Shown here piece by piece: positions 7,458 through 32,000 of a DNA stretch of 32,000 bases (its first letter is position 1; each line of letters begins with the position of its first letter). The notes under the pieces are model-generated. The model had not been told where the DNA came from and did not search any database. It was given only the letters and a program-made list of their open reading frames with translations. The DNA is taken from assembly GCF_000025665.1 (NCBI RefSeq), contig NC_013926.1, forward strand, positions 360,001 to 392,000, given 5' to 3'. Source of the stretch: Aciduliprofundum boonei T469 (GTDB lineage Archaea; Thermoplasmatota; Thermoplasmata; Thermoplasmatales; Aciduliprofundaceae). The position numbers were made by a program, and so were the translations under genes.

Positions 7458-7578
7458 CAGCCCCGGGAGGATTCGAACCCCCGTCGCGGGATCTCCTCGA
7501 AGCCCTTTGGGGGTAAAGCACCTTTTCCAAAGGGGCTTCGCCAAAGTCCCGCATGCTTGACCGCTACACCACGGGGCT
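7458..7578 (-). tRNA. tRNA-Gln(UUG) with a 48-nt intron (7493..7540) at the canonical 37/38 position
   Basis: Hand-folded cloverleaf: acceptor AGCCCCG/CGGGGCT, T-arm GGGGG-TTCGAAT-CCTCC, anticodon stem CGGGA/TCCCG, loop CU-UUG-G|intron|A. Mature length 73 nt. CCA is not encoded. Confidence 0.85.
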
Positions 7579-10212: not shown

Positions 10213-10311
10213 AATTAAAAATACCCGAAATATATTTCAAACGCACATAGAGCTATCTGCACCAACAGAATGAGAGATATAGCCTTGCTCAATACATCCT
10301 TGAATAAATAG

Positions 10312-10437
10312 TGCCCGAGCCGGGATTCGAACCCGGGTCAAGGGCTACCTGCAAAGCCCCCTTCTTTACGGGTAAAGCACCTTTTTAAAGGGGCTTTTCC
10401 GCAGGCCCCCAGGATATCCATGCTACCCCACTCGGGC
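10312..10437 (-). tRNA. tRNA-Arg(GCG) with a 52-nt intron (10347..10398) at 37/38
   Basis: Acceptor GCCCGAG/CTCGGGC, T-arm CCGGG-TTCGAAT-CCCGG, anticodon stem GGGGC/GCCCT (one G-U pair), loop CU-GCG-G|intron|A. CCA is not encoded. Confidence 0.8.
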
Positions 10438-18930: not shown

Positions 18931-19278
18931 TTAATCCTCCTCCTTTTCTTCCTTGTACTTATCAACCACGCTACCTTCCCAAAGCTTAACTCCATGCTTA
19001 TAACTGGCCCTAGCCAAGGCGCTCGCACCTATTGGCGCAGTCAAAACTATGAACGCTGCAATAATCAAACTCTTAGGAAGCCACCCAAGATCTATTAATC
19101 CTATACCAACGAGTACGCTTAAAGCTCCGAGAGTGGTCGCTTTTGTTGCTGTTTGCATCCTATTGTAAACATCAGGCATGCGAAGCAAACCTATAGAGGC
19201 AAGCAGGAGAAAGAATGTCCCTATGCTGATAAATATATAACCTATTATCTGCAAAATTAAAAGTATCACATTGCTCAT
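18931..19278 (-). CDS. MrpG-like subunit (MbxC-like)
   Basis: 115 aa, 3 TM helices, MnhG-like (LLRMPDVYNRMQTATKATTLG). ATGA overlap upstream. Confidence 0.75.
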   Translation of the reverse strand: MSNVILLILQIIGYIFISIGTFFLLLASIGLLRMPDVYNRMQTATKATTLGALSVLVGIGLIDLGWLPKSLIIAAFIVLTAPIGASALARASYKHGVKLWEGSVVDKYKEEKEED

Positions 19279-19541
19279 AGGCCTCCCTCCAGATACCTTG
19301 CAAGTGCTATTACGCCTACAAAAGCCAAAATGCCATACACGAGTGCCACATCCATATATATGAACCTCTGGAAGAAATATCCAAGGAGAACCAAGAGCAC
19401 TATGGTTATGTTAGTCAATATATCCAACGCTACTGCCCTATCTGGCGCTGTGGGGCCCTTTACAAGGCGAATTATTGTTAAAAATGCTGCCACGGAAATT
19501 AATGCTATGAATATTGCACATATATCAATTGAACAGTTCAT
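19275..19541 (-). CDS. MrpF-like subunit (MbxB-like)
   Basis: 88 aa, 3 TM helices, MnhF-like (RLVKGPTAPDRAVALD). ATGA overlaps on both sides. Confidence 0.75.
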   Translation of the reverse strand: MNCSIDICAIFIALISVAAFLTIIRLVKGPTAPDRAVALDILTNITIVLLVLLGYFFQRFIYMDVALVYGILAFVGVIALARYLEGGL

Positions 19542-20062
19542 TCAAACACCTCTCTTAGGTATTTCTCAAAATCCCCTTTTATAATATCTCCAGCTTCCTT
19601 CTCATCCTCGCTGTGCACATAGATCCAGTGAATGTAATATTTATCATCAATAATCTGCATAGTCATAGTACCTGGAGTGAGAGTTATTGAATTTGCCAAA
19701 GCCAGCTTCCCGACAGGATTTTTCAAATCCGTCCTTATCCTCACAATACCGGGCTTTATAGGCCTCTTAGGACTCAAAACCCTATAAGCAACATCAAAAT
19801 TTGCTTTTATCATAGCCCAAATAAAAACAGGGATATATTTCAAAAACCACCAAACTCTATGGGGGGATAAATTATACAAACCCCTTTCGGATAAATGCTG
19901 ATAACTGAAAGCTGCTGCAATAAGTGATAGAACAATACCTGCTGTAAACTCCTGCAAAAATTGCTCCTCTTTAATCCCAGGTGAAAATGTGAATCCACAC
20001 CAAATTATGATGAATATCAGGAAGGCATACAGGAACCGGTTCGCATTGCTTACCTTTTTCAA
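19538..20062 (-). CDS. MrpE-like subunit (MbxA-like), first gene of the cluster
   Basis: MnhE-like core (VAYRVLSPKRPIKPGIVRI...LANSITLTPGT). The start is uncertain. The ORF track gives TTG 20185, only 8 nt from tRNA-Pro. I prefer TTG 20062, which is preceded by GAAGGTGGT and has a TATA-like TTAAATATAAAA about 45 nt upstream. Confidence 0.65.
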   Translation of the reverse strand: MKKVSNANRFLYAFLIFIIIWCGFTFSPGIKEEQFLQEFTAGIVLSLIAAAFSYQHLSERGLYNLSPHRVWWFLKYIPVFIWAMIKANFDVAYRVLSPKRPIKPGIVRIRTDLKNPVGKLALANSITLTPGTMTMQIIDDKYYIHWIYVHSEDEKEAGDIIKGDFEKYLREVFE

Positions 20063-20106
20063 GTTACCACCTTCTTTGAGGCTTTTTTCTCTCTGGTAAT
20101 CTTGAG

Positions 20107-20118
20107 TTTTATATTTAA
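20107..20118 (-). promoter_or_regulatory. Candidate TATA box for the Mbx-like operon
   Basis: The minus strand reads TTAAATATAAAA, about 45 nt upstream of the proposed TTG 20062 start. Assigned by eye only. Confidence 0.3.
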
Positions 20119-20192
20119 TCTTATTTGTTCGATTTCCGAACCATTGAAAAGGAAAAATTAATTTATTAGTTTGTTCATTCACCAATCCCCAT

Positions 20193-20313
20193 GGGGCCGT
20201 GGGGTAGCTTGGTTATCCTACCGGCTTTGGGAGAGGAACCACCAGCGGGTTCCTTTACCTCCTGCAACCCTCCAGAAAAGCCGGTGACTCCGGTTCAAAT
20301 CCGGGCGGCCCCA
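20193..20313 (+). tRNA. tRNA-Pro(UGG) with a 47-nt intron (20232..20278) at 37/38; its 3' end is the casposon target
   Basis: Acceptor GGGGCCG/CGGCCCC, T-arm TCCGG-TTCAAAT-CCGGG, anticodon stem CCGGC/GCCGG, loop UU-UGG-G|intron|A. CCA is not encoded. Confidence 0.85.
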
Positions 20314-20323
20314 CTACGAGGAG
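20309..20323. repeat. Target-site duplication, left copy (CCCCACTACGAGGAG)
   Basis: Identical 15-mer at 29400..29414. The left copy includes the last 5 nt of tRNA-Pro. Confidence 0.85.
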
Positions 20324-20359
20324 GGGGATATATATACATCCCCTCTTAAGTTCCCTTTT
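20324..20359. repeat. Left terminal inverted repeat
   Basis: GGGGATATATATACATCCCCTCTTAAGTTCCCTTTT matches the reverse complement of 29364..29399 at 35 of 36 positions. Confidence 0.9.
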
Positions 20360-23058
20360 CACATCACTCCTGATTTGTAGATCTGATATAGGATTGGATA
20401 CAACTTCCTTTTTCTCTTGGGATACTTTCCACGCTTTAGGTTTGTTTTAAGCTTCTTTATTGCCCTTAATGAGACTTTGACATCAGGATATTTTGCATTA
20501 ATATACTCTAATATTTTCTTAGGTGAAAGACTCGATATAAAATCTTTGAAATCTTCCATTTTCTCATATTCTATGTATTCAGGTATACCCATTATCATAT
20601 TTTTCTCTAGCTCGTTAGACTCCTTCCCTATGTATTTTATGTGGTCAACTGTTATTTGTCTCCTATTCAACAATCCAACATCCCCTTCATACTTTCCGTC
20701 ATGGTGGTTAAAGTAGTCTTCAAGAACTTTAGAAATGGGTTTCCAGTATTCTTTTGTATCTAAGGGTAGATCTTGAGAGCTCAGACCTGACTTGTAGTCA
20801 ATAAACGGTCGGTATGGTATAAGCTCAAACTTTTTATCTTGAGGGCTTATGAAGGGCATAATTGGTATTACTGGCTCACCATTCTCGGAGCGGTAGGCAG
20901 TCCCAACAGTAACAAAATTGAAAGGTTTTATCTTCTTTGCTAGTTCTTTATTATTGTTCAGATAGTCAAACCTTTTAAGAACCTGTGGGGTTGTGACTGT
21001 TAGTTGAGATACAGCATACTTGTGGTGGTATTTTTCAATTATCTCTTCTCTACTATCAGGGTGATAGTGCATTTTTAGAATATCTTCCCAAACCTCTTTT
21101 GGGTCTATGCCTATTATATGACCTAAGCCGTGAGAAGACTCTTTTAATATCTCTATTTTTTCACCATTAATACGATACAGGCAATACCTCTTAGCAGAGA
21201 TGCCATAAAATAGCACATTATCTAATGGTATGCCCTCTTCGTTGTCCTCGATTTTAAACATGTCAACACTATAAGAATAGGGGTTTAATTTTTCAAAGAG
21301 CTCCTTGACCTCTCTAACTTTTTCAGGTTTTACAAATATGCTGTCTGTATCCATGTAGGCATAGTACCCATTATTTGAAGCAATACTTTCAGCAATAGCC
21401 AAGATAAGCCTTGCACCAGAGGTTAGGAATATGGCTATTATTGGGTTATATGCCTTTCCAATGCTCTCTATTTTGCCTACCTTAGTGTTAAACTCTTCAA
21501 GACCATAGACGGTGATCTCCTTATCTTTTACTTTTTCACTATTTACCTCTATAAATATTCCATAAGAAGAAGCATTTGCTATTATCTTAAACTCATTCTG
21601 GATAACTTTTAACTTCTCAATATCTCCAATGCCTCTCTTTATTTGGTCTTTGTACTCAAGCCTCTTCTCTATGATCTTCTTTATGAAATTCTCTTCAGGG
21701 GCTATTGTAATACCGTTGATCTCTATAGCTCTTAAACTCTGTCTACCTACTGGCTCAAATGTCAAAGAATCTATTATTTCAGGGGCTTTTCCAGTTAAAA
21801 TTTTAGATGAAATTACATCTTCTATAGTGTACCATATAGGTCTTTGAGAAGTCAGGTAGTTAATTCCTATATTGTAGACATCTCCACGGTACTTCATCCT
21901 TATGGGTAATATGTCCCTATCAGGTCTTATTAATACAATACTCCTCATTAAAGGGTCTCTCCATACCTCTTTATCCTGTAGGCTTTCAACACTTATCTTT
22001 GATAGGAATGATTTGACCTCACCTTTGGTAGCTCTTACTCTTATAGACCTAGCCTTAAGAATCTCATCTAGCTTGAGTAGTATGAAAAGGGTGGGGTACA
22101 TAGAGGTAAAGTCAAGGTATGTAACGGGAATAGGGCTCTTCCTTATCTTACACTCAGTCCTACCACCATAATAAGTAGTCATAGCAAAGCCCAGTACCTC
22201 TTTAGGAAAATCAGGGTTAAGCTCCATAAATGGACTTATACCCATCTTATTGAGGTAGTACTTACCTATTGATGCTGGGGAATATAGTAGGTTTTCTTCC
22301 ATGTCTATATTGAACATCTCTTTTCTCTCCATAAGTTTAAGGTAAAGTTCAAAGGTCACTTGCACATCGTTTAAGTTGTACTCTATGTAGTCTTTATTTA
22401 TTGCTCCATGCCTCTCAGGGTGTGTCTTATAGTGCTCACACTTGAACTCTTTGGAGGCTGACTCTAAAGTATGTCTCTTGTTTGTTAGGGCAAATGCAAA
22501 AGTCCTCAGATCTACAAAATACCCTTCGTAGTGCGTGTATTTTCTCTTGCTCTTCTTTCTGAGTGGTCTTAAAAACTTTATAAAAGACTTTGTGGAGTCC
22601 AATGCTCTTATCATGACCCTTGGGTTTCTAGGATCCTTTGAGAGTGTAAAAGAAAAAGCCCTCGGGTCTTTCCTAGATATTGTGTAGTCAATAGCCAGTC
22701 TAGACAAGTCAAAAGGTAAGTTGAACCCTATACACTTTGCCCTTGCTTGGTAAACATAGGGGTAAAAGACCTTTTCAACAAACCTAGTCTTTGGTATGAC
22801 CTTAATACTGTGGCTATCTCCAAACTCTATTATTTTCTCCTTTTCAGACTCTTTTAGGTTATCTTCATAGAAAATATACCTCTCAATAACCTTATTGTTC
22901 CTTGCAATTAAACTTGATCCGAATAGTAGGTTTTGGTACTCATCAGTAGTTGTCTCGGTATCGAAAACAAGCAATAGTGAGGGGTTAGGTGATATTTTCT
23001 CTTTATACCCACTCCTATTATCACTATGAGAAAAACACCTTAGAGCAATATCACTCAT
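20359..23058 (-). CDS. polB: Family-B DNA polymerase (casposon PolB)
   Basis: Exo I FDTET, Exo II FNLPFD, Exo III YNLND. Pol A YLDFTSMYP, Pol B KIIANASSYG, Pol C YMDTDS, plus KRY. ATG 23058 is preceded by GGAGGT; the ORF track TTG is at 23073. Confidence 0.9.
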   Translation of the reverse strand: MSDIALRCFSHSDNRSGYKEKISPNPSLLLVFDTETTTDEYQNLLFGSSLIARNNKVIERYIFYEDNLKESEKEKIIEFGDSHSIKVIPKTRFVEKVFYPYVYQARAKCIGFNLPFDLSRLAIDYTISRKDPRAFSFTLSKDPRNPRVMIRALDSTKSFIKFLRPLRKKSKRKYTHYEGYFVDLRTFAFALTNKRHTLESASKEFKCEHYKTHPERHGAINKDYIEYNLNDVQVTFELYLKLMERKEMFNIDMEENLLYSPASIGKYYLNKMGISPFMELNPDFPKEVLGFAMTTYYGGRTECKIRKSPIPVTYLDFTSMYPTLFILLKLDEILKARSIRVRATKGEVKSFLSKISVESLQDKEVWRDPLMRSIVLIRPDRDILPIRMKYRGDVYNIGINYLTSQRPIWYTIEDVISSKILTGKAPEIIDSLTFEPVGRQSLRAIEINGITIAPEENFIKKIIEKRLEYKDQIKRGIGDIEKLKVIQNEFKIIANASSYGIFIEVNSEKVKDKEITVYGLEEFNTKVGKIESIGKAYNPIIAIFLTSGARLILAIAESIASNNGYYAYMDTDSIFVKPEKVREVKELFEKLNPYSYSVDMFKIEDNEEGIPLDNVLFYGISAKRYCLYRINGEKIEILKESSHGLGHIIGIDPKEVWEDILKMHYHPDSREEIIEKYHHKYAVSQLTVTTPQVLKRFDYLNNNKELAKKIKPFNFVTVGTAYRSENGEPVIPIMPFISPQDKKFELIPYRPFIDYKSGLSSQDLPLDTKEYWKPISKVLEDYFNHHDGKYEGDVGLLNRRQITVDHIKYIGKESNELEKNMIMGIPEYIEYEKMEDFKDFISSLSPKKILEYINAKYPDVKVSLRAIKKLKTNLKRGKYPKRKRKLYPILYQIYKSGVM

Positions 23059-23485
23059 ACTTATTACCTCCAAGGGGGAAACACCTTAGTGCAATTTCCC
23101 TAGCAATCCTCTCATAAAAGAAGTTTTGGGTCTTGTAAGCCTTTAACTCTAAAATATCTATGAGTCCCCTCAAAAAGAACTTGTGTCTCTTTTCTGTAGG
23201 TAATCCTCTCTTTAACCATTCTTCGCCCCATAGGTTCTGTTTAGCACTTAAATGTTGGTGACATTCTTTACAGACTAAAACGACCCTGCTGTCATGCTTC
23301 CTACCTGCAATATGGTGTCTTTCAAGACCTTTTGTAGCTCCGCATATCTCACAGTACTTTGGTAGCTCTCTCTCATACTCAAATAAAGAGAGAACCCAGT
23401 TCGAAGCTTTAGAATACTCTTTTTCAATAGTATCTCTAACATCCATAAGGATCTCATCAATGCATAGTGGAGACTGAGAATACAT
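23051..23485 (-). CDS. HNH endonuclease
   Basis: CEICGATKGLERHHIAGRKHDSRVVLVCKECHQHL is CxxC...HH...CxxCH, a zinc-stabilised HNH core. Its 3' end overlaps the polB start by 8 nt. Confidence 0.8.
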   Translation of the reverse strand: MYSQSPLCIDEILMDVRDTIEKEYSKASNWVLSLFEYERELPKYCEICGATKGLERHHIAGRKHDSRVVLVCKECHQHLSAKQNLWGEEWLKRGLPTEKRHKFFLRGLIDILELKAYKTQNFFYERIAREIALRCFPLGGNKYE

Positions 23486-23491
23486 AGGGAC

Positions 23492-24001
23492 TCACCAATT
23501 GTATATCTCATAGAACTCGGGTTCTTCTATAGACCTTGCAATATCTACCAGTTTTTCAGGGTCAGTCTCTAGCTTGTGTATGTTACCCTGAGCATCTTTT
23601 ATTTTTATGTTTCTAAACCTCTCAACAGCTGTAATATCACCAGTCTCTAGAAATATTCTTACTGCATTGTGGTACTTACCTATTATAGAAGCATACCTTG
23701 AGTCATTCACCTCTATGCTAATTTTCTTACCATTTTCATTTATGTCCATTACTCTAGAGATTTTGTCATACCTCTTTGCTATCCACCTACCGTTAACCTT
23801 CTTAAAAGCATTAGTGCTCTTAATCACGGTGTTTGGAGATATACCTACCTTCTTACATGCACTTGACAAAGACTCCCCTTTCCTTACTCTAGCAAGTACT
23901 TCCAAGCTCTTTTCCCTTAGCATTTTCTCTCGAGGGCTCAATAAGCTCCAAGGCTTCTTGAAGACCCTCTCTTTTCCAGACATACTACTTTTCTCTCTCA
24001 T
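23492..24001 (-). CDS. HTH DNA-binding protein (casposon-encoded)
   Basis: HTH-like LSSACKKVGISPNTVIKS. The start is ambiguous: ATG 24001 has TTTATAGTATAGG directly upstream (possibly leaderless), and alternatives are 23983 and 24064. The ORF-track start 24118 would overlap the divergent gene. Confidence 0.55.
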   Translation of the reverse strand: MREKSSMSGKERVFKKPWSLLSPREKMLREKSLEVLARVRKGESLSSACKKVGISPNTVIKSTNAFKKVNGRWIAKRYDKISRVMDINENGKKISIEVNDSRYASIIGKYHNAVRIFLETGDITAVERFRNIKIKDAQGNIHKLETDPEKLVDIARSIEEPEFYEIYNW

Positions 24002-24129
24002 ACCTATACTATAAACATTGGGGATATATAATATAGTGAATTCACTACACTTTACTTTATCCATAATGTTAAATATCTTTGAAAAACTTGAAAATACACG
24101 GAAAATATTATATTGCATTGTTCACTATC
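24002..24129. promoter_or_regulatory. Divergent promoter/operator region inside the casposon
   Basis: AT-rich spacer between divergent HTH genes. Contains GGGGATATATAATATA (24020..24035, the same first 11 nt as the TIR tip) and the perfect palindrome GTGAATTCAC (24036..24045). Confidence 0.4.
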
Positions 24130-25170
24130 ATGAGTATGGAAAAGTTCCAATCAGCTACTAGGATAATAGCACATAGAAGGAAACAAAAGACAAGAGAAAA
24201 AGTTCTTGGAATTATAAAATCACATGGAAAAATAAGGTTCAAAGAGCTTATGCAAGAAAGTGGGTTGTCTAATAGGTGGCTCTCTATAACTCTCCATGAA
24301 CTCCTTGAGGAGGGTCTGATTAAGCAAGTAATTGGGGATATAGAGGTTAAGGGTAAAAATGGGGAGCCTGTGTTAAAGAAGAGGGCTAAGTTATACACAA
24401 TCACTAAAAAAGGTGATAATGTTTACAGTAATGCATGGTATATATTACACAAACTAGAAGATTTGAGAGAAAGAGGTTCTACATATTATCATAACGATTT
24501 TGAACTATTTGGAGTTGATATAATAATGAATGGGGTAGAAGGTGATGCATTTAATACATTACCTACAATTCCAGAATATGAATTTTTCATAATGCGTAGC
24601 ATATTTAGAAAAGTGGGTGCATACGATATTAAAAACCTCTCAGGTGAAGTGATTATTGCACTAAACTTTGATATGCATAAATTAATTGGAGGTATTTTAG
24701 AAATTAAAGACTTCATTAAGATGTTAATTAAAAATGCCGATGTTTTTGAGAGTGATCTTTTTAGGGATATGGGTTGGAGAGATAAAATTCACAAGTTTAT
24801 ACATCTCCTTAATTATTCCAAATTACTAGTTGATAATAAGGATATAATTGAAAGAATAACGAAAAATGGGAATAAGTTATTTTTGTCCTACAAGCCATTA
24901 ATAATTTCGAGTTATTATCGTACTGGAAAAGGTCTTGATGAAGAAATACTAGAAAAGGTCAAAGAGCATATTGAAAATGATACAAATCCCTTAGAGGATG
25001 AAAATATTAAGCATAAATTGATTAGAAAATCTGGTAATATTACCGAATTTCCCATTTATGATTATTTAAATTTACTTAAGGTATTTAATCTCACTAATTA
25101 CCCATTTCTACAAAAAATAGAGTTAGTGAATGAAAAAATAACTAGAACAATAGAGAATGGAGGTATCTAA
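24130..25170 (+). CDS. Winged-HTH protein with a large C-terminal domain of unknown function (casposon-encoded)
   Basis: N-terminal wHTH-like KVLGIIKSHGKIRFKELMQESGLSNRWLSITLHELLEEGLIKQV. ATG 24130 is preferred over TTG 24079. Its stop is immediately followed by the cas1 ATG. Confidence 0.6.
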   Translation: MSMEKFQSATRIIAHRRKQKTREKVLGIIKSHGKIRFKELMQESGLSNRWLSITLHELLEEGLIKQVIGDIEVKGKNGEPVLKKRAKLYTITKKGDNVYSNAWYILHKLEDLRERGSTYYHNDFELFGVDIIMNGVEGDAFNTLPTIPEYEFFIMRSIFRKVGAYDIKNLSGEVIIALNFDMHKLIGGILEIKDFIKMLIKNADVFESDLFRDMGWRDKIHKFIHLLNYSKLLVDNKDIIERITKNGNKLFLSYKPLIISSYYRTGKGLDEEILEKVKEHIENDTNPLEDENIKHKLIRKSGNITEFPIYDYLNLLKVFNLTNYPFLQKIELVNEKITRTIENGGI

Positions 25171-26385
25171 ATGAACCCTCTTTTAGTTAGTGGTTATGGA
25201 ATTTCCATAAATGTGGATAAAAGGAAACTAGTAATAAGGGAAAAAGGTAAACAAGTTCACGAATTTTACCCCCACCAGATAAACTACGATTCCCTAATAA
25301 TTGAAGGTTATTACGGGAATATTTCCTTTGAAGCTATAAGATGGTTAATGAAGCACAATATAACGGTATCCGTTTTAAACTGGAACGGAAACCTACTTTC
25401 CGTATTTTTGCCTAAGGAACCCATTAACGGAAAACTGAAAATAAGGCAGTATGAAATATACATTAACGAAAAAGAGAGACTGAAAATTGCGGAAAAAATA
25501 TTAGAGGAAAAAATAAGGAAATCGGAAAATATGCTATATGAATTAAGTGAGTATTATCCAGAAATTGAGCACATTAAAGTAAAAAAGAGGATAGAAAAAG
25601 AGGAAAAACTAAAAAGGGACATGGAATTAAAAGAGGAAAATAAACCGAAATTATCCTATTTATTGATGTATGAGGGAAGGGTTGCGCAAATATACTGGAA
25701 AGAGTTATCAAAGATTTTCAATAAACTGTACCCTGAATTTAACTTCACTTCAAGGAGTACTAAGTCTTATTCTTGGAACATGAACGCTTCAGATGAAATA
25801 AATGCACTTTTAAACTATTCTTACGCACTACTTGAGTCTATGATAAGAAAGCATATCAATGCGGTAGGTCTAGACCCATCGATTGGTTTTTTGCATGAAC
25901 TAGCTTCCTCTAAGACCCCTCTTGTATATGATCTTCAAGAGCTTTTTAGGTGGGTATCTGACCTATCCGTTATCCAACTTCTAGAGGATAAGAAGTTAAA
26001 GAAATCATCTTTTATTGTAACTGAGAACTACCATATACGCCTTAAGCCCCAGACCTCAAAGCTCCTTGTTGAGAAGTTCAAGCTCAATATGAACAAGAAA
26101 TATGAAGTTGGTAAAAAGAGGTACACTCTGGAAACAATTATGTTCAATACAGTTCGATCCTTGGGTAAATATATCCTTGGGAAATCTAACACCTTGAAAT
26201 TTGAGATTCCATATATCCGTATAGAACATATAGAACCTGAATTAACAGAGAAAATACTTAAAATGACACCAGAAGAGAGGAAAGCACGGGGAATAAACAA
26301 GTCTACACTCTGGTACCAAAAGAAGAAACTGGCTCAAGGTAAGAGTATAAAAGTGTATGGGAAGGTAAAGAGTAAATTAAAATAG
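25171..26385 (+). CDS. cas1: Cas1 homolog (casposase) with a C-terminal HTH extension
   Basis: Cas1 signature blocks: LMYEGRVAQIYW (catalytic Glu), INALLNYSYALLES, GFLHE (His), LVYDLQELFRW (Asp/Glu). C-terminal TPEERKARGINKSTLWYQKKKL is HTH-like. GGAGGT lies 8 nt upstream. Confidence 0.9.
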   Translation: MNPLLVSGYGISINVDKRKLVIREKGKQVHEFYPHQINYDSLIIEGYYGNISFEAIRWLMKHNITVSVLNWNGNLLSVFLPKEPINGKLKIRQYEIYINEKERLKIAEKILEEKIRKSENMLYELSEYYPEIEHIKVKKRIEKEEKLKRDMELKEENKPKLSYLLMYEGRVAQIYWKELSKIFNKLYPEFNFTSRSTKSYSWNMNASDEINALLNYSYALLESMIRKHINAVGLDPSIGFLHELASSKTPLVYDLQELFRWVSDLSVIQLLEDKKLKKSSFIVTENYHIRLKPQTSKLLVEKFKLNMNKKYEVGKKRYTLETIMFNTVRSLGKYILGKSNTLKFEIPYIRIEHIEPELTEKILKMTPEERKARGINKSTLWYQKKKLAQGKSIKVYGKVKSKLK

Positions 26386-26407
26386 ATTTAAGTATTATAT
26401 CATTAAG

Positions 26408-29311
26408 ATGTCAGAAAAAAGAGGAAAGGTCACTGAAAGATCTTTATATCCAGCCATTATAGATCTATTAAAAAAAAGAGGTGCCGAAGGAGTCGAGGAG
26501 ATTAAATACGAATCTCAGCCAGATATAATCGCTGATTGGTTAGGAGCAAGATGGATTATTAGCATAAAAATAGGGAATTATACAAAAAGTATGTTCTTTA
26601 AAAATGCCATGATACAATATGCAAGGCATATAATTGATTCGGGTCTTAAATATGGAATGATTATATTTTTACCAGAGAGTATTAGAAATATTTCTGTAGA
26701 AGAGAAAGCTCTTTATAATGCTATCAGAAATAAAAAAGCTTATGTTATTTTAGATACTCCTGAAACTCAGAAAGAATTTTTAGATACCTTACCCAATATT
26801 TTTGAGGAAGTAGAAAGAATTTTAAAAGAGAAAATCAAATCCACATATAGTTTAAAAACGGTAATTACCCTTTTAAAAGAGCAAATCAATGATATTATGA
26901 AAGAGACTAGAATTACAGAGAAGGAAATGACCAATATAATTACAAGTGATGAATTGTTTCTTGGGATTAGTGCATCAAAACATAAGGATATAAAAGTAAT
27001 AAAGTTTATTTCGACATATATTTTTTTAACACAGGTTCTATTTGCTAGGTTATACGGTGTAGAACATCCAGCAATTTTAAGCGGTTTTGATATTAGAAAT
27101 ATAACTAAAGAAGGTATAAGAGAACTCTTTAGACGAATTACTGAGATAAATTATAGACCAATATATAAATTTGATATACTGGATACCATACCTGAACATT
27201 ATATAAAAGATACTTTCACTTTGATATGGAATTTAAAGATAGAAAATATTAGGTTTGAACTCCCAGGAAGATTATTTCATGAGCTTATGCCAAAAGAAAT
27301 TAAAAAAATGCTTGCTGCTTTTTATACTAGACCAATAGCTGCAGAAATTTTATCTTGTGTTACAATTAACAATGCTGAAGAAGTCGTATTTGATCCTGCT
27401 TGCGGTTCTGGTACGATACTGACTGCAGCATATAGAAGAAAACGAGAATTATGGAATAAACAAGAAGATCCTCACAAACTCTTTTGTGAAGAACAAATTT
27501 ATGGAACAGATATAATGCCATTTGCCGTAAATCTAACCACAGCTAATTTAGCATCTCTTAATCCTAAAATTACAATAGAAAAAATGAACATAGCAAGAGC
27601 TGATAGTCTTAAACTTGAACTAAACGTGCCTATTAAAAATGGTTTATCTAAATTAGAAAGATATGGTATACCTATCTCATCTAATATTAAAAGTAAGAAT
27701 ATGCAAGGTGATGAATATGATATGGTTCTAGACCTAATGGATGTTGTTCTAATGAATCCCCCATTTACAAAAATTGAAAGGGGAGTAAAGAAATATATAA
27801 AAATAGAGCGTTTCAAATCACGAGTTGGAGGAGAAATAGGATTATGGGGGCATTTTATAGCTTTGGCAGATATGATTCTTAAGCCAAATGGTATGTTTGG
27901 AGGGGTTATTCCTATTAATATATTGAGGGGAAGAGAAAGTGAAAAAGTAAGAAAAATAGTTTTTGAAGAGTGGTTACCTCTATATGTAATAAAATCAACA
28001 ATGAATTATGGTTTTTCTGAATCTTCTGAATATAGAGACATTCTAATAATAGCTAAAAAAACCAAATCAAAACCTATTAATCATAAAGTTAAGTTTGTTT
28101 TAATTAAAAAAGATCTAAATTCATTAAGCTTTAAAGATGTTAAGCGGATATGTGATAGGATTAAAACCTCATCAAAGTTAAATGACCCTCTACTAGAAAT
28201 AAGATCGTATTCTATGGAAGATATAAAAAAGCATTTTGTTAATATGATGTGGTTTATTAGTGGGTCATCTTTTGAATGGAAAGATAATCTTTTAAACATA
28301 ATAAGAAAATCCGAAATGGTGTTAGATTATTTCCCACATAGTGGTAATGGATATTTTATGGAAGGATATAGACCCGTACCAAAAGGTGTTTCTAAATTCA
28401 TGTTTATTACAAGACCTATTAATGAAAATAGGATCGATAAAGCCTTTTTAGTTCTCATCAAAGAAGATGATAAAAAAATATTCGCTGAAACAAAAATGAT
28501 GTATGAAATGAGTAAACTCAATGAACATTCAAAGAGTAGCATTTTCGATTTTGATAAAGATAAGTTTTTACTCACTATTAGAACACCCGTTGGATTGAAT
28601 ACAATGGATATTACAAATAAACATGATTATATTGCTATATCTCCTTATAAGGACATAGAAAAAATCCAGAGACTTTCAGGATTTAATAGTTCATTAAAAA
28701 ATAGTTATTGGAATAATATTAAAAAACAAATGAATAATATAAAAACTAAAATTATTGTAAGCCGTCGCATAAACCCTTATTCTCCAAATACACATTTGAT
28801 AGCTTTCTTCTCTGAAAATGATATTTTTCCTTCCAATCAAGTAAATGTGGTTGTAGAACCAGATCCAAGGAAGGCAAAAGCTGTGACCGTTTTATTAAAT
28901 TCAATATTTTTCTTGGCTTATTTCTTTAATCTTAAGGAAGAGACTACTGGGAGATATATAGATATTCGTTTTTATGATTTATACTCAATGAAACTGTATC
29001 CTACTACTAACACACAAATTGATAATTTAGTAAAAGTATTTAATAAATTTAAAGATGTAAATTTTCCTCCCTTAAGAGAGCAGCTTGATGAGCATTTTAC
29101 TGAAAGATATTCTGTATTCTGGAGCTCAGAAAGAAAAAAAATTAAGCCTTTGATACCTGTTGATTCTATAAAGCCGCATCCTGTACGACTAAAATTCGAT
29201 AAAGCCATAATAAAAGCTTTAAACTTATCAATTTCGCATGAAGAACTATTGCAAGCTTATAATGCAATAATAAACGATATGATTATTACCCGAGGATTAA
29301 AAAAAGATTGA
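26408..29311 (+). CDS. Large N6-adenine DNA methyltransferase, gamma-class, with N- and C-terminal extensions (type IIG/IIL-like single-chain R-M candidate)
   Basis: Motif I VFDPACGSGTILTAA is followed by motif IV LMNPPFTK. 967 aa. The N-terminal ~100 aa has a PD...(S)xK-like segment (QPDIIADWLGARWIISIK). The long C-terminal region could be a target-recognition domain. Confidence 0.75.
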   Translation: MSEKRGKVTERSLYPAIIDLLKKRGAEGVEEIKYESQPDIIADWLGARWIISIKIGNYTKSMFFKNAMIQYARHIIDSGLKYGMIIFLPESIRNISVEEKALYNAIRNKKAYVILDTPETQKEFLDTLPNIFEEVERILKEKIKSTYSLKTVITLLKEQINDIMKETRITEKEMTNIITSDELFLGISASKHKDIKVIKFISTYIFLTQVLFARLYGVEHPAILSGFDIRNITKEGIRELFRRITEINYRPIYKFDILDTIPEHYIKDTFTLIWNLKIENIRFELPGRLFHELMPKEIKKMLAAFYTRPIAAEILSCVTINNAEEVVFDPACGSGTILTAAYRRKRELWNKQEDPHKLFCEEQIYGTDIMPFAVNLTTANLASLNPKITIEKMNIARADSLKLELNVPIKNGLSKLERYGIPISSNIKSKNMQGDEYDMVLDLMDVVLMNPPFTKIERGVKKYIKIERFKSRVGGEIGLWGHFIALADMILKPNGMFGGVIPINILRGRESEKVRKIVFEEWLPLYVIKSTMNYGFSESSEYRDILIIAKKTKSKPINHKVKFVLIKKDLNSLSFKDVKRICDRIKTSSKLNDPLLEIRSYSMEDIKKHFVNMMWFISGSSFEWKDNLLNIIRKSEMVLDYFPHSGNGYFMEGYRPVPKGVSKFMFITRPINENRIDKAFLVLIKEDDKKIFAETKMMYEMSKLNEHSKSSIFDFDKDKFLLTIRTPVGLNTMDITNKHDYIAISPYKDIEKIQRLSGFNSSLKNSYWNNIKKQMNNIKTKIIVSRRINPYSPNTHLIAFFSENDIFPSNQVNVVVEPDPRKAKAVTVLLNSIFFLAYFFNLKEETTGRYIDIRFYDLYSMKLYPTTNTQIDNLVKVFNKFKDVNFPPLREQLDEHFTERYSVFWSSERKKIKPLIPVDSIKPHPVRLKFDKAIIKALNLSISHEELLQAYNAIINDMIITRGLKKD

Positions 29312-29329
29312 GTTCAATTAGTTCAAGTC

Positions 29330-29342
29330 TTTTTATTTTTTT
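29330..29342 (+). terminator. Oligo-T tract, candidate archaeal terminator after the methyltransferase gene
   Basis: TTTTTATTTTTTT lies 19 nt after the stop codon, just inside the right TIR. Confidence 0.35.
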
Positions 29343-29363
29343 GTGTTTAAATAGATATTTATA

Positions 29364-29399
29364 AAAAGGGAACTTAAGAGGGGATATATATATATCCCC
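29364..29399. repeat. Right terminal inverted repeat
   Basis: AAAAGGGAACTTAAGAGGGGATATATATATATCCCC. The terminal 20 nt (29380..29399) form a perfect palindrome. Confidence 0.9.
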
Positions 29400-29414
29400 C
29401 CCCACTACGAGGAG
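29400..29414. repeat. Target-site duplication, right copy (CCCCACTACGAGGAG)
   Basis: Identical to 20309..20323. Confidence 0.85.
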
Positions 29415-29487
29415 ACACCTACGATTAAGTCCCCCTTTGGGACTAACTCGCAGCTTTTGCTGCTCGTTTCCCCCTCTACCCTCTTCC

Positions 29488-29580
29488 CTAAGGGATAGGT
29501 GCTTTACCTCCCAAAGAAGAAAAGTGTTTTATCCCAAAAGAAAAAAGTTCCTTTAAAAAGCAGCTTTACCCCCAGAGAAA
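29488..29580 (+). repeat. Degenerate tandem units related to the tRNA-intron core (GGTGCTTTACC...AAAG-AAAA)
   Basis: Successive units: GGTGCTTTACCTCCCAAAGAAGAAAA / GTGTTTTATCCCAAAAGAAAAAA / GTTCCTTTAAAAA / GCAGCTTTACCCCCAGAGAAAA. Confidence 0.4.
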
Positions 29581-29646
29581 ATTTGCTTTTTCTATTCTAG
29601 AAATTAAAGAAAAAAAGCAATATATTCAAAAATATTTCAGATACAT

Positions 29647-31020
29647 ATGAAAAGATTTCCAAAGGTGAAAGTTATCACACTTATAGTGGTTTTGCTCTTA
29701 TTATCTATTACTGCAGGATATTATATTTTAAACACCAACAAAATAAAAATTTTGGAGTGTGGGTATTTCTTTGGTGCCAATCCCAAAAATCCTAATCAAA
29801 CAATAACCTACATTTATTTGAAATTATCTGCGCCTGTTCATAATGGGGATATTATCCATATTTACAAAAATGAAAGCGATTTTTACTATAACTTGGTGAC
29901 TTGGAAGGTTAATCGCACACAGGATGGCAAAACCAATATAACCATACCGCTTGATATGCTTGATAATCTCAATGGCTCCATGGACATTTATATAAAGAGA
30001 GGTAGTTCTTATCTTTACAGGGGAAAAATATCGTTTTCTGTACACCCCCACCTTGATGTATCCGTGACAAATATACATGTTCGTCCTGTAAGTGCCAAAT
30101 ACGCGTACATAACAAATGTGCATCTCTTAATAAAGTCTCAAAGACCAATTTATATATGTGGATTGAATTTTACAGTGTTTAATATGAATATCTACAAGGA
30201 GGTTAATAGTGTGATTTATGGTGTAAAGAAGGTTAATATAAGTGTGTCTCCTGGAAAGGTTGTACAACTTGTGCAAAAGGGCATCGTGCCTGTGAAGATT
30301 ACACTTCTCTATCCAGCATATCCCGATAATCTTGATAAGCCAGAGAAATATCCCGTTGATAGTGAATGTGTAATCAATTTCACTTACCCTCCTGTTGTTA
30401 TAACTAATTTCTCGATTTATAATTCTTCGTCATATCCGTCATATATCTTCCTTTTATTTCAACTCAGCAGATTTCCTGATTATCCGGTCCACATTATAGT
30501 TTACAAACTCAATGGTACAATTATAGGAGAAGGATATGGTGTTGGAATAGGTAAAAATGATACTGTATTCATATCCGTACCCTTCCCCCCTAATTATAAT
30601 TTCAACGGCACATATGTTGCAGTTTTAGAAGACAATTACGGATTTGCCCTTAATAGCCTTACATTTACTCTCAAATCTGGGCCACTTAAGTTAATTTCTC
30701 ACGAAGAAATATTTAATGAAACAAATGACCCCAATAAAGTGATTTTGAGATCACTAGTCCTTAAACTGGAGAATCTTGGAAATTTCAACTTCTACATAAC
30801 ACACTATGAATATAAGATAAGTTTTATTTCAAATGGCACCGTTGCTGCATCAGGGGACTATACTTGGTTCTATCAAGCGATACCCCCCAGAAAATTTACT
30901 AATGTAACCCTTCCATTTTATGTGCACCTCATTAAAGGAAAAACTTATAAAATTTCCCTTACATTTGAAGGTGGCAACAAGAATGTCAAATGCACGATTG
31001 ATTACACTTTTAAAGCGTAA
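29647..31020 (+). CDS. Secreted or surface protein with an N-terminal signal/anchor and many N-glycosylation sequons
   Basis: N-terminal KVKVITLIVVLLLLSITAGYY. I count 16 N-x-S/T sequons in 457 aa. Beta-rich composition and no recognisable catalytic motif. Confidence 0.6.
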   Translation: MKRFPKVKVITLIVVLLLLSITAGYYILNTNKIKILECGYFFGANPKNPNQTITYIYLKLSAPVHNGDIIHIYKNESDFYYNLVTWKVNRTQDGKTNITIPLDMLDNLNGSMDIYIKRGSSYLYRGKISFSVHPHLDVSVTNIHVRPVSAKYAYITNVHLLIKSQRPIYICGLNFTVFNMNIYKEVNSVIYGVKKVNISVSPGKVVQLVQKGIVPVKITLLYPAYPDNLDKPEKYPVDSECVINFTYPPVVITNFSIYNSSSYPSYIFLLFQLSRFPDYPVHIIVYKLNGTIIGEGYGVGIGKNDTVFISVPFPPNYNFNGTYVAVLEDNYGFALNSLTFTLKSGPLKLISHEEIFNETNDPNKVILRSLVLKLENLGNFNFYITHYEYKISFISNGTVAASGDYTWFYQAIPPRKFTNVTLPFYVHLIKGKTYKISLTFEGGNKNVKCTIDYTFKA

Positions 31021-31142
31021 TTGTAAGAATGCGCTCCAGCACTTGAAAACTACAAGTTTTATTCATACAGGAGAAAGATTGAGGAGAATATTATTAGCTG
31101 CGTTCGCGGTTTCGGAGGAAATGAGGAAAATAGAAGAAAAGA

Positions 31143-32000
31143 TCATTCCATATGCTCTTTGAACCAATCAACTATCTCCTTCAATCTTATTTCTCTGTGC
31201 TTTGGCTTTCCACTGCGAGATAAATCGTGATTTTCGTGGGGAAATAGAACCATCTTTGTATCCACACCCTGCATCTTAAGGGCATAGAATAATTGATATG
31301 CTTCACTTATGGGGCATCTGTAATCCTCCTCGCTATGTATTATCAGCAGCGGAGTTTTTATATTCTTGGCATATTTCAATGGACTCATACTCCAATAATT
31401 CTCAAATCCTTCCCAGAGATCCTTACCGGCACCAATATAATCTTTGTTAAACCACGGCCCTATATCACTAGTGCCCCAGAAAGAGAGTTGGTTGCTTATG
31501 CTCCTCTGCGTAGCTGCAGCTCTGAATCTATCCGTATGCCCAACAATCCAGTTAGTCATAAATCCCCCATAAGAGCCTCCAGTAACAAATACCTTTTTCT
31601 TATCAATTGAATAATTCTCAAGCACAAAATCAAGAGCTTCCATCAAATCCTTGTAATCTCTATTTCCAAAATCACCTCTAATCTTCAAAGCAAATTCTTC
31701 AGAATAGCCAGATGAGCCACGGGGATTTGTGAAGATAACAGCAAATCCTTGAGAGAGGAAATAGTAGAACTCAAACATAAATGCATGGCCATAAGATGTT
31801 TTAGGTCCCCCATGAATCTCCAAAATAGCTGGATGTGGCCCTTTACCCTCTGGCAACAAGAGCCATCCCTCTACCTCTTCACCATCACTTACTTTCACTG
31901 TAAAATGCTCTCCTTTGGGCAATTTTAAGAACCTATTTAAATTGGTTATTCTTCTCTCTCTGTCCCTTTTTATAAAAACATCTGCAGGATGATTCATTTC
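31143..32000 (-). CDS. S9-family serine peptidase (prolyl oligopeptidase/acylaminoacyl-peptidase catalytic domain), possibly truncated by the window edge
   Basis: Nucleophile elbow GGSYGG, with downstream SEEDYRCP (Asp) and PHENHDL (His). There is an ATG at 31997, but the frame is still open to base 32000, so an upstream beta-propeller domain cannot be excluded. Confidence 0.8.
   Translation of the reverse strand, partial: EMNHPADVFIKRDRERRITNLNRFLKLPKGEHFTVKVSDGEEVEGWLLLPEGKGPHPAILEIHGGPKTSYGHAFMFEFYYFLSQGFAVIFTNPRGSSGYSEEFALKIRGDFGNRDYKDLMEALDFVLENYSIDKKKVFVTGGSYGGFMTNWIVGHTDRFRAAATQRSISNQLSFWGTSDIGPWFNKDYIGAGKDLWEGFENYWSMSPLKYAKNIKTPLLIIHSEEDYRCPISEAYQLFYALKMQGVDTKMVLFPHENHDLSRSGKPKHREIRLKEIVDWFKEHME

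Follow-up and report, generated by a model that had tools for sequence, protein, structure and literature searches.

How did a tRNA gene, a 15-bp segment that recurs about 9 kb away and a long inverted repeat come to lie side by side in the genome of Aciduliprofundum boonei T469, and how far does the resulting junction resemble the leader-repeat junction of a CRISPR locus, to which an earlier note on this DNA had likened it? The stretch analysed here (the window) is 32,000 nt long. The features on which the question turns, with the two copies of the 15-mer given as the target-site duplication (TSD) and the inverted repeats as terminal inverted repeats (TIRs), are as follows:

20193-20313, plus strand: tRNA-Pro(UGG) gene with a 47-nt intron (full-length match to Rfam RF00005, 45.5 bits; bulge-helix-bulge motif; tRNA-Pro in PMC5137440)
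20295-20301, plus strand: leader motif TCAAATC, located in the T-loop and extending to the first base of the T-stem, at a distance of 9-15 bp on the upstream side of the insertion point (mutagenesis in PMC6614799)
20309-20323, plus strand: left TSD copy CCCCACTACGAGGAG (exact match; quoted verbatim in PMC5137440)
20324-20359, plus strand: left TIR GGGGATATATATACATCCCCTCTTAAGTTCCCTTTT (35/36 match to the right arm)
29364-29399, minus strand: right TIR AAAAGGGAACTTAAGAGGGGATATATATATATCCCC (35/36 match to the left TIR)
29400-29414, plus strand: right TSD copy CCCCACTACGAGGAG (exact match), followed by the original flank ACACCTACG

The junction pair at tRNA-Pro almost certainly represents the two ends of the casposon AciBoo-C1 of A. 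boonei T469. The TSD string published for that element, CCCCACTACGAGGAG, is the same as the 15-mer of the window (PMC5137440), and the published flanks (CP001941.1 380184-380323 and 389415-389539) differ from window positions 20323 and 29415 by an offset of exactly 360,000 at both junctions; thus, the window corresponds to CP001941.1 360001-392000. The palindrome AGTCCCCCTTTGGGACT quoted in PMC5137440 is likewise present, at 29428-29444, and scaffold DS990515.1 of assembly GCA_000151085.1 is 100% identical to window positions 19171-32000. In its TSD, TIRs, gene content and genome coordinates the element is identical to AciBoo-C1 as described earlier (Krupovic 2014; Hickman & Dyda 2015; Beguin 2016, 2019), with no differences between the two, and we found no evidence that contradicts this explanation. 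The junction feature is real and had been read correctly, with coordinates and sequences that prove accurate base for base, and it has already been described and dissected experimentally for exactly this sequence. What the present analysis adds to the known picture of AciBoo-C1 is a set of empty-site alleles and further metagenomic examples.

The tRNA gene that borders the element on the left is not detected at 20193-20313 by a default run of ARAGORN, and its identity is established by its intron. A canonical bulge-helix-bulge, worked out both by hand and by script, places the 47-nt intron (20232-20278) after G37, which yields the anticodon UGG (TGG at 20228-20230) and hence proline. The motif combines the anticodon stem CCGGC/GCCGG, a central helix UUUG/CAGA, 3-nt bulges GGA and AAA, and an outer helix GAGG/CCUC. 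With introns allowed, ARAGORN proposes Leu(taa) for the same coordinates. A tRNA-Leu is characterized by a long variable arm, and this assignment is ruled out by the 4-nt variable region, typical of class I, together with the bulge-helix-bulge after G37. The T-stem and T-loop occupy 20289-20305, the 3' strand of the acceptor stem 20306-20312, and the discriminator A position 20313. The first 5 nt of the left TSD copy are the last four acceptor bases plus this discriminator; gene and 15-mer share these 5 nt, and with the left copy the tRNA gene is complete and intact. This bears out the view that insertion duplicates 14-15 bp from within the 3' strand of the acceptor onwards and does not disrupt the tRNA, as has also been published for this locus.

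The duplicated segment and the inverted repeats are both far removed from chance expectation. The 32-kb window contains exactly two copies of CCCCACTACGAGGAG, both on the plus strand and 9,091 bp apart, even when up to two mismatches are tolerated; at that tolerance the chance expectation is 0.01, and none of 100 shuffled sequences gave two copies. The left junction reads GGTTCAAATCCGGGCGG, CCCCACTACGAGGAG and then GGGGATATATATACATCCCCTCTTAAGTTCCCTTTT, and the right junction reads AAAAGGGAACTTAAGAGGGGATATATATATATCCCC, CCCCACTACGAGGAG and then ACACCTACG. The sole mismatch between the arms is at TIR position 14, and the similarity stops sharply after position 36. No chance match was seen in 100 shuffles when the TIRs were tested by a pattern-based procedure, plain inverted-repeat shuffling being confounded by local palindromes (one shuffle yielded 25 nt); the outer 20 nt of the left TIR, GGGGATATATATACATCCCC, are palindromic in themselves. 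The interpretation as an element bounded by TIRs stands on two 36-nt arms, matching at 35 of 36 positions and abutting both 15-mers, and agrees with the published conclusion for this locus. The run of eight consecutive C residues at 29396-29403 was also confirmed. Because of the C run at the junction, the sequence is equally compatible with cuts that give 14 or 15 bp, and the ambiguity in TSD length noticed earlier is genuine: the literature is split in the same way, counting 15 bp from 20309 (PMC5137440) or 14 bp, +1 to +14, from 20310 (PMC6614799), with the critical CC dinucleotide at 20310-20311 in the latter numbering.

If the two 15-mers were a host intergenic repeat that predated the element, or a chance repeat, they would say nothing about insertion. 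The stretch downstream of this tRNA is indeed repetitive in the lineage: a DHVE2 metagenome-assembled genome (L024) carries an imperfect TSD-like segment, CTAAGAGGGGACACCTACGG, about 105 nt downstream on its minus strand as a second copy. Against this reading stand the chance expectation of 0.01 and the exact abutment of both copies on the outer ends of the TIRs, as well as the recreation of the duplication by insertion in vitro (PMC5137440) and the structure of the site in relatives that lack the element. When the 3' end of this tRNA was used to scan species-representative genomes, at least 120 loci were returned. Among the matches listed, L024 has the tRNA followed by one CCCCACTACGAGGAG joined straight to ACACCTACG, the right flank of A. 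boonei, and L010 and L059 are syntenic with diverged single copies. In a strain-level survey, based on loci in which the MnhE gene neighbouring the tRNA encodes exactly the same protein, the following alleles were distinguished:

L163/L174, L172 and L176: occupied allele, 100% identical to the window
L164/L173: empty allele with the exact 15-mer and then directly ACACCTACG, flanks 96.4% identical
L171 and L181: empty allele with the one-base variant CCCCACTACGAGGGG
L167/L178 (DS990525.1): unoccupied allele with an altered site, 97.6% identical, T-loop TTCGAAT, no TSD segment
L165, L166, L168, L169, L175, L177, L179 and L180: sequence diverging right after CCCCAC

Two further loci, L092 and L170, show the same first bases as the last group, and their contigs end there. 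At empty sites whose flanks are 96-97% identical, a single copy is joined directly to the right flank; as the 15-mer is single in uninterrupted loci, it is a true target-site duplication, and the thought that it might be naturally tandem in such loci, which would have undone the duplication reading, is answered by these relatives. Thus, natural empty-site alleles confirm the duplication by comparative genomics, and an origin of the two 15-mers as a host or chance repeat has to be regarded as extremely improbable. At the unoccupied locus on DS990525.1 the leader motif is mutated to TCGAATC and the CTACGAGGAG segment is absent. Alleles of this kind, with a TCGAATC T-loop or a missing TSD segment, are possible natural tests of the published recognition rules. 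Assembly GCA_000151085.1 contains both the occupied scaffold DS990515.1 (L159/L176) and the 97.6%-identical unoccupied DS990525.1 (L167/L178), which implies that two strains or alleles are present in this draft.

The survey also brought to light a strain-variable cassette between tRNA-Pro and a peptidase S9 gene, which starts immediately after the tRNA. The alleles diverging after CCCCAC were considered as an alternative insertion and rejected: what they show is replacement of a variable host segment and no mobile element, the next gene being the same peptidase S9. They encode an 836-aa ORF (L175 1145-3655, minus strand) without similarity to PolB or Cas1, whose N terminus resembles a signal peptide and whose C terminus resembles a membrane anchor, as judged by eye. 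In T469, the 457-aa ORF to the right of the casposon (29647-31020, plus strand) has no family match and is swapped for this unrelated 836-aa ORF in several close relatives. To the right of ACACCTACG (29415-29600), T469 has an extra 42 nt that form two small hairpins, in a stretch that varies between strains. In L063 (4214-4330, plus strand), a degenerate second T-arm, acceptor and TSD-like segment with flank lie about 58 nt past the intact tRNA. These extra copies in L063 and L024 and the hairpins of T469 may be relics of earlier integrations at tRNA-Pro.

Between the outer ends of its TIRs the element measures 9,076 bp (20324-29399) and contains six ORFs:

20359-23058, minus strand: gene for a putative divergent family B DNA polymerase, 899 aa in public assemblies, within a 904-aa ORF reaching 23073 (motifs; weak PHROG match; PMC5137440 Fig. 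1)
23051-23485, minus strand: HNH endonuclease gene (best PHROG HNH match, E 6.9e-06; weak Pfam HNH match; HNH in the PMC5137440 map)
23492-24118, minus strand: gene for a small helix-turn-helix (HTH) protein (weak HTH_23 match; HTH in the PMC5137440 map)
24130-25170, plus strand: gene for a winged-HTH protein, 346 aa as called (L160; ORF from 24079) (weak winged-HTH matches)
25171-26385, plus strand: gene for the casposase, a Cas1-family integrase of 404 aa (PF01867, E 5.1e-63; TIGR00287, E 4.1e-54)
26408-29311, plus strand: cargo gene for an N6-adenine DNA methyltransferase, Eco57I/MmeI-like, 967 aa (Pfam N6_Mtase, E 4.3e-14; Eco57I, E 7.3e-10)

The winged-HTH gene lies directly upstream of the casposase gene. 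The best solved relative of the casposase is 6OPM (E 4.4e-75), which we take to be the structure of the Methanosarcina mazei casposase bound to DNA. The N6 methyltransferase has been recorded for AciBoo-C1 (PMC4046053). The product of 20359-23058 appears to be a divergent family B polymerase, as judged from its motifs, one weak PHROG match and the literature: FDTETT (Exo I), DFTSMYP (motif A), KIIANASSYG (motif B) and YMDTDS (motif C) can be read in the translation, the single PHROG match to a DNA polymerase has an E value of 0.0011, and the gene is drawn as PolB-like in PMC5137440 Fig. 1; searches of Pfam, NCBIfam and PDB (phmmer) returned no match even at E 10. Every feature of a family 2 casposon that can be tested by sequence was found, except that the polymerase is identified by motifs and literature with no significant profile match. 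At 27-32%, the G+C content of the right half of the casposon (24000-29000, with cas1 and the methyltransferase gene) is lower than that of the polymerase half (35-39%) or of the flanks (about 40%), which suggests a mosaic origin.

These contents bear on two other ways of accounting for the junctions. As the 3' ends of tRNA genes are classic att sites, the 15-mer could in principle be the att core of an integrative element or provirus brought into tRNA-Pro by a tyrosine or serine recombinase, and the tRNA 3'-half relics downstream in L063 make past integrations at this site possible. However, searches of Pfam, NCBIfam and PHROG revealed no tyrosine or serine recombinase among the six ORFs of the element, the duplication is abutted by 36-nt TIRs, which att-type integration does not make, and the encoded Cas1 integrase produces the same duplication in vitro (PMC5137440); in practice this alternative is already refuted, and we accord it next to no probability. 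Equally hard to credit is a conventional IS or DDE transposon that carries cas1 as passive cargo: its appeal is that TIRs and a TSD are generic transposon hallmarks, but the same searches gave no DDE or other transposase domain in any of the six ORFs, the 14-15-bp TSD is as measured for the casposase at random sites, and the reaction is performed by purified casposase alone (PMC5137440, PMC6614799 for both). How the encoded casposase integrates has been shown in vitro, in biochemical work by others on this very sequence.

Given TIR-derived duplexes or mini-casposons as substrates, purified A. boonei casposase favours the reconstituted site, where its insertions produce a 15-bp duplication; the segment that is duplicated does not serve as a target by itself, the flank on the downstream side can be dispensed with, and the upstream T-loop segment is essential (PMC5137440). 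The idea that recognition resides in the upstream T-arm has therefore been vindicated by published assays of the kind that the earlier note had proposed and refined by later mapping of the determinants to TCAAATC (20295-20301; -15 to -9), which the casposase needs for concerted integration, and the CC just past the upstream cut (20310-20311) (PMC6614799). In the window the combination TCAAATC-N8-CC occurs once, at the 20295 site. Even after deletion of the greater part of the TSD segment, the second cut falls 14 bp downstream, a 14-bp "yardstick" that has been ascribed to the spacing of two active sites (PMC6614799). Casposase without the His tag is more promiscuous than the tagged enzyme: insertions at the target made up 4 of 9 clones in one set and 4 of 28 in another (PMC5137440, PMC6614799). 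In these in vitro reactions, the casposase recognizes TCAAATC as a "leader" in the T-loop together with the CC at the leader/target border, one casposon 3'-OH is joined at that border, and the other is joined some 14 bp further downstream, to the opposite strand, at a distance given by enzyme geometry and not by sequence. Gap repair, as for other transposons, would then duplicate the 14-15-bp segment, and since this segment opens with the final acceptor-stem bases, an intact tRNA gene would be regenerated in its left copy.

By analogy, a two-part target of this kind, with upstream recognition and a duplicated segment of fixed length, can be said to follow the same functional logic as spacer integration by Cas1-Cas2. 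A CRISPR leader-repeat junction and the AciBoo-C1 site share a Cas1-family integrase, a first attack at the border between the upstream recognition sequence and the duplicated segment, a second attack set by a ruler, and the fixed length of the duplication. In contrast to CRISPR, AciBoo-C1 lacks a repeat array, Cas2 and a short spacer selected for size; the insert is a 9-kb element with TIRs, the duplicated unit measures 14-15 bp against about 30 bp for a CRISPR repeat, and the "leader" belongs to a tRNA gene. A search for CRISPR-like tandem arrays found none in the 32-kb window, and neither Cas2 nor any other Cas family was detected among the six element ORFs and the two neighbouring ORFs scanned. 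A CRISPR array at the locus itself was rejected, given only two 15-mer copies enclosing a TIR-bounded element, no repeat-spacer array in the window and no Cas2 among the scanned ORFs. The comparison with the leader-repeat junction that the earlier note had made was drawn explicitly by Beguin et al. (PMC5137440); the likeness was shown experimentally in 2016 and 2019 and so is not new. Its importance lies in the proposal that casposons are the ancestors of the CRISPR adaptation module, for which the AciBoo-C1 junction is a textbook case.

Among transposons that use a homologous enzyme, the closest parallel is provided by the family 2 casposons of M. mazei (Krupovic 2016; Hickman et al. eLife 2020), for which the structure of the casposase bound to DNA was solved (Hickman et al. 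eLife 2020). As in AciBoo-C1, the TSD, there of 14 bp, overlaps the end of a tRNA gene (its last 4 bp); integration depends on an upstream segment of the tRNA, and casposons arrayed in tandem have one TSD in common. The two systems differ in their target, tRNA-Leu in M. mazei versus tRNA-Pro in A. boonei, in the upstream extent needed, TSD plus 30 bp versus TSD plus 15 bp, and in the conserved start of the TSD, CGCA versus CC(CC)A. A more remote parallel is Tn7, whose machinery (TnsABCD) is unrelated to Cas1, whose TSD is 5 bp against 14-15 bp in the casposon, and whose site, attTn7, lies downstream of glmS. The likeness to Tn7 at attTn7 is that the 3' end of a conserved essential gene is recognized, the gene is left intact, and one site is reused; this comparison with casposons was made by Krupovic 2014 (PMC4046053) and Krupovic 2016.

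Further casposons with similar junctions were found in metagenomes, where a scan with the casposase returned 38 loci; viral contigs scanned in the same way contained no relatives. Three of these loci encode casposases about 50-57% identical to the A. boonei enzyme, and in each a tRNA adjoins the casposase gene:

L136: tRNA-Pro(CGG), ending in CCCCA, then TTCTGTATGT, then GGGTATATATT
L126: tRNA-Pro(UGG), ending in CCCCG, then CTCTTATTCC, then GGGTTATAGC
L121: intron-containing tRNA, probably Ile, ending in GCCCA, then CTTCAAAGCA, then GGGGTTATATATAAG

All three have a GGG(G)TWATA terminus, like the A. boonei TIR, exactly 10 nt past the tRNA discriminator, and all three carry TCAAATC in the T-loop. 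The 15-bp duplications of the L126, L136 and L121 elements (CCCCGCTCTTATTCC, CCCCATTCTGTATGT and GCCCACTTCAAAGCA) are predictions from the left junctions, the right ends lying beyond the contigs. The recurrence of the spacing between tRNA and terminus at tRNA-Pro genes and at one other tRNA fits a leader motif located in the near-universal T-loop. On Ga0315282_10000737 (L125/L128), two casposons with casposases 56% identical to the A. boonei enzyme form a tandem pair: one ATTACATCGTGG lies between them and another follows the second (L125 10510-10545; L128 1948-2017 and 15362-15421), the second element measuring 13.4 kb with 48-nt TIRs and the first being cut by the contig start. This tandem with a shared repeat is the arrangement described for Methanosarcina (Krupovic 2016). 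Taken together, the metagenomic casposase loci fit the published model and contain nothing categorically new. One apparent match from a Methanocellaceae metagenome-assembled genome (L090), with GGGGATATATAC exactly 10 nt past a tRNA-Pro, resembled a further casposon at first sight and was dismissed as chance, with PAS/histidine kinases downstream and no partner TIR.

Whether AciBoo-C1 still moves is a separate matter. In vivo transposition or excision was not shown for A. boonei according to Hickman et al. (eLife 2020), and in vivo translocation has been reported for M. mazei (PMC10359463). The tRNA-Pro site is polymorphic among Aciduliprofundum genomes with an identical MnhE: besides occupied alleles there are empty ones, some bearing the exact 15-mer and others a mutated leader. 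An occupied and an unoccupied scaffold also occur together under the accession GCA_000151085.1. One short-read contig (L161, Logan SRR606249_1935) corresponds to window positions 24138-29399 and stops exactly at the last base of the casposon, inside the C8 run. The source, SRR606249, is presumably a synthetic mock community containing A. boonei. The contig may end there as an artefact of the homopolymer or of coverage, or because the casposon end is joined to more than one sequence at a branch point; should it reflect casposon ends that are free, or joined in some other way, in the culture, excision or transposition of AciBoo-C1 would be indicated for the first time. As the occupied copies found all share one site and 100% sequence identity, occupancy could reflect one old event, and with the end of L161 falling within a C8 homopolymer, we consider present-day mobility of AciBoo-C1 in vivo unlikely.

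Finally, the window contains two further tRNA genes with introns:

7458-7578, minus strand: intron-containing tRNA gene
10311-10437, minus strand: intron-containing tRNA gene

Their T-loops read TTCGAAT, unlike that of tRNA-Pro. All three intron-containing tRNA genes of the window are missed by default ARAGORN, and Rfam at its gathering threshold detects only two of them; with introns allowed, ARAGORN assigns implausible identities to two of the three (Stop(tta), and Leu(taa) for tRNA-Pro). A motif GCTTTACCYCC, often in the form GGTGCTTTACC, occurs at 7509-7519 (minus strand), 20252-20262, 29501-29511 and 29563-29573 (all plus strand), and also within 10311-10437 (minus strand); it is placed in the introns of the tRNA genes of the window and twice in the intergenic stretch to the right of the casposon. 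Its four matches compare with 0.83 expected, and none of 100 shuffles reached four. The motif may be a marker of fragments derived from tRNA introns.
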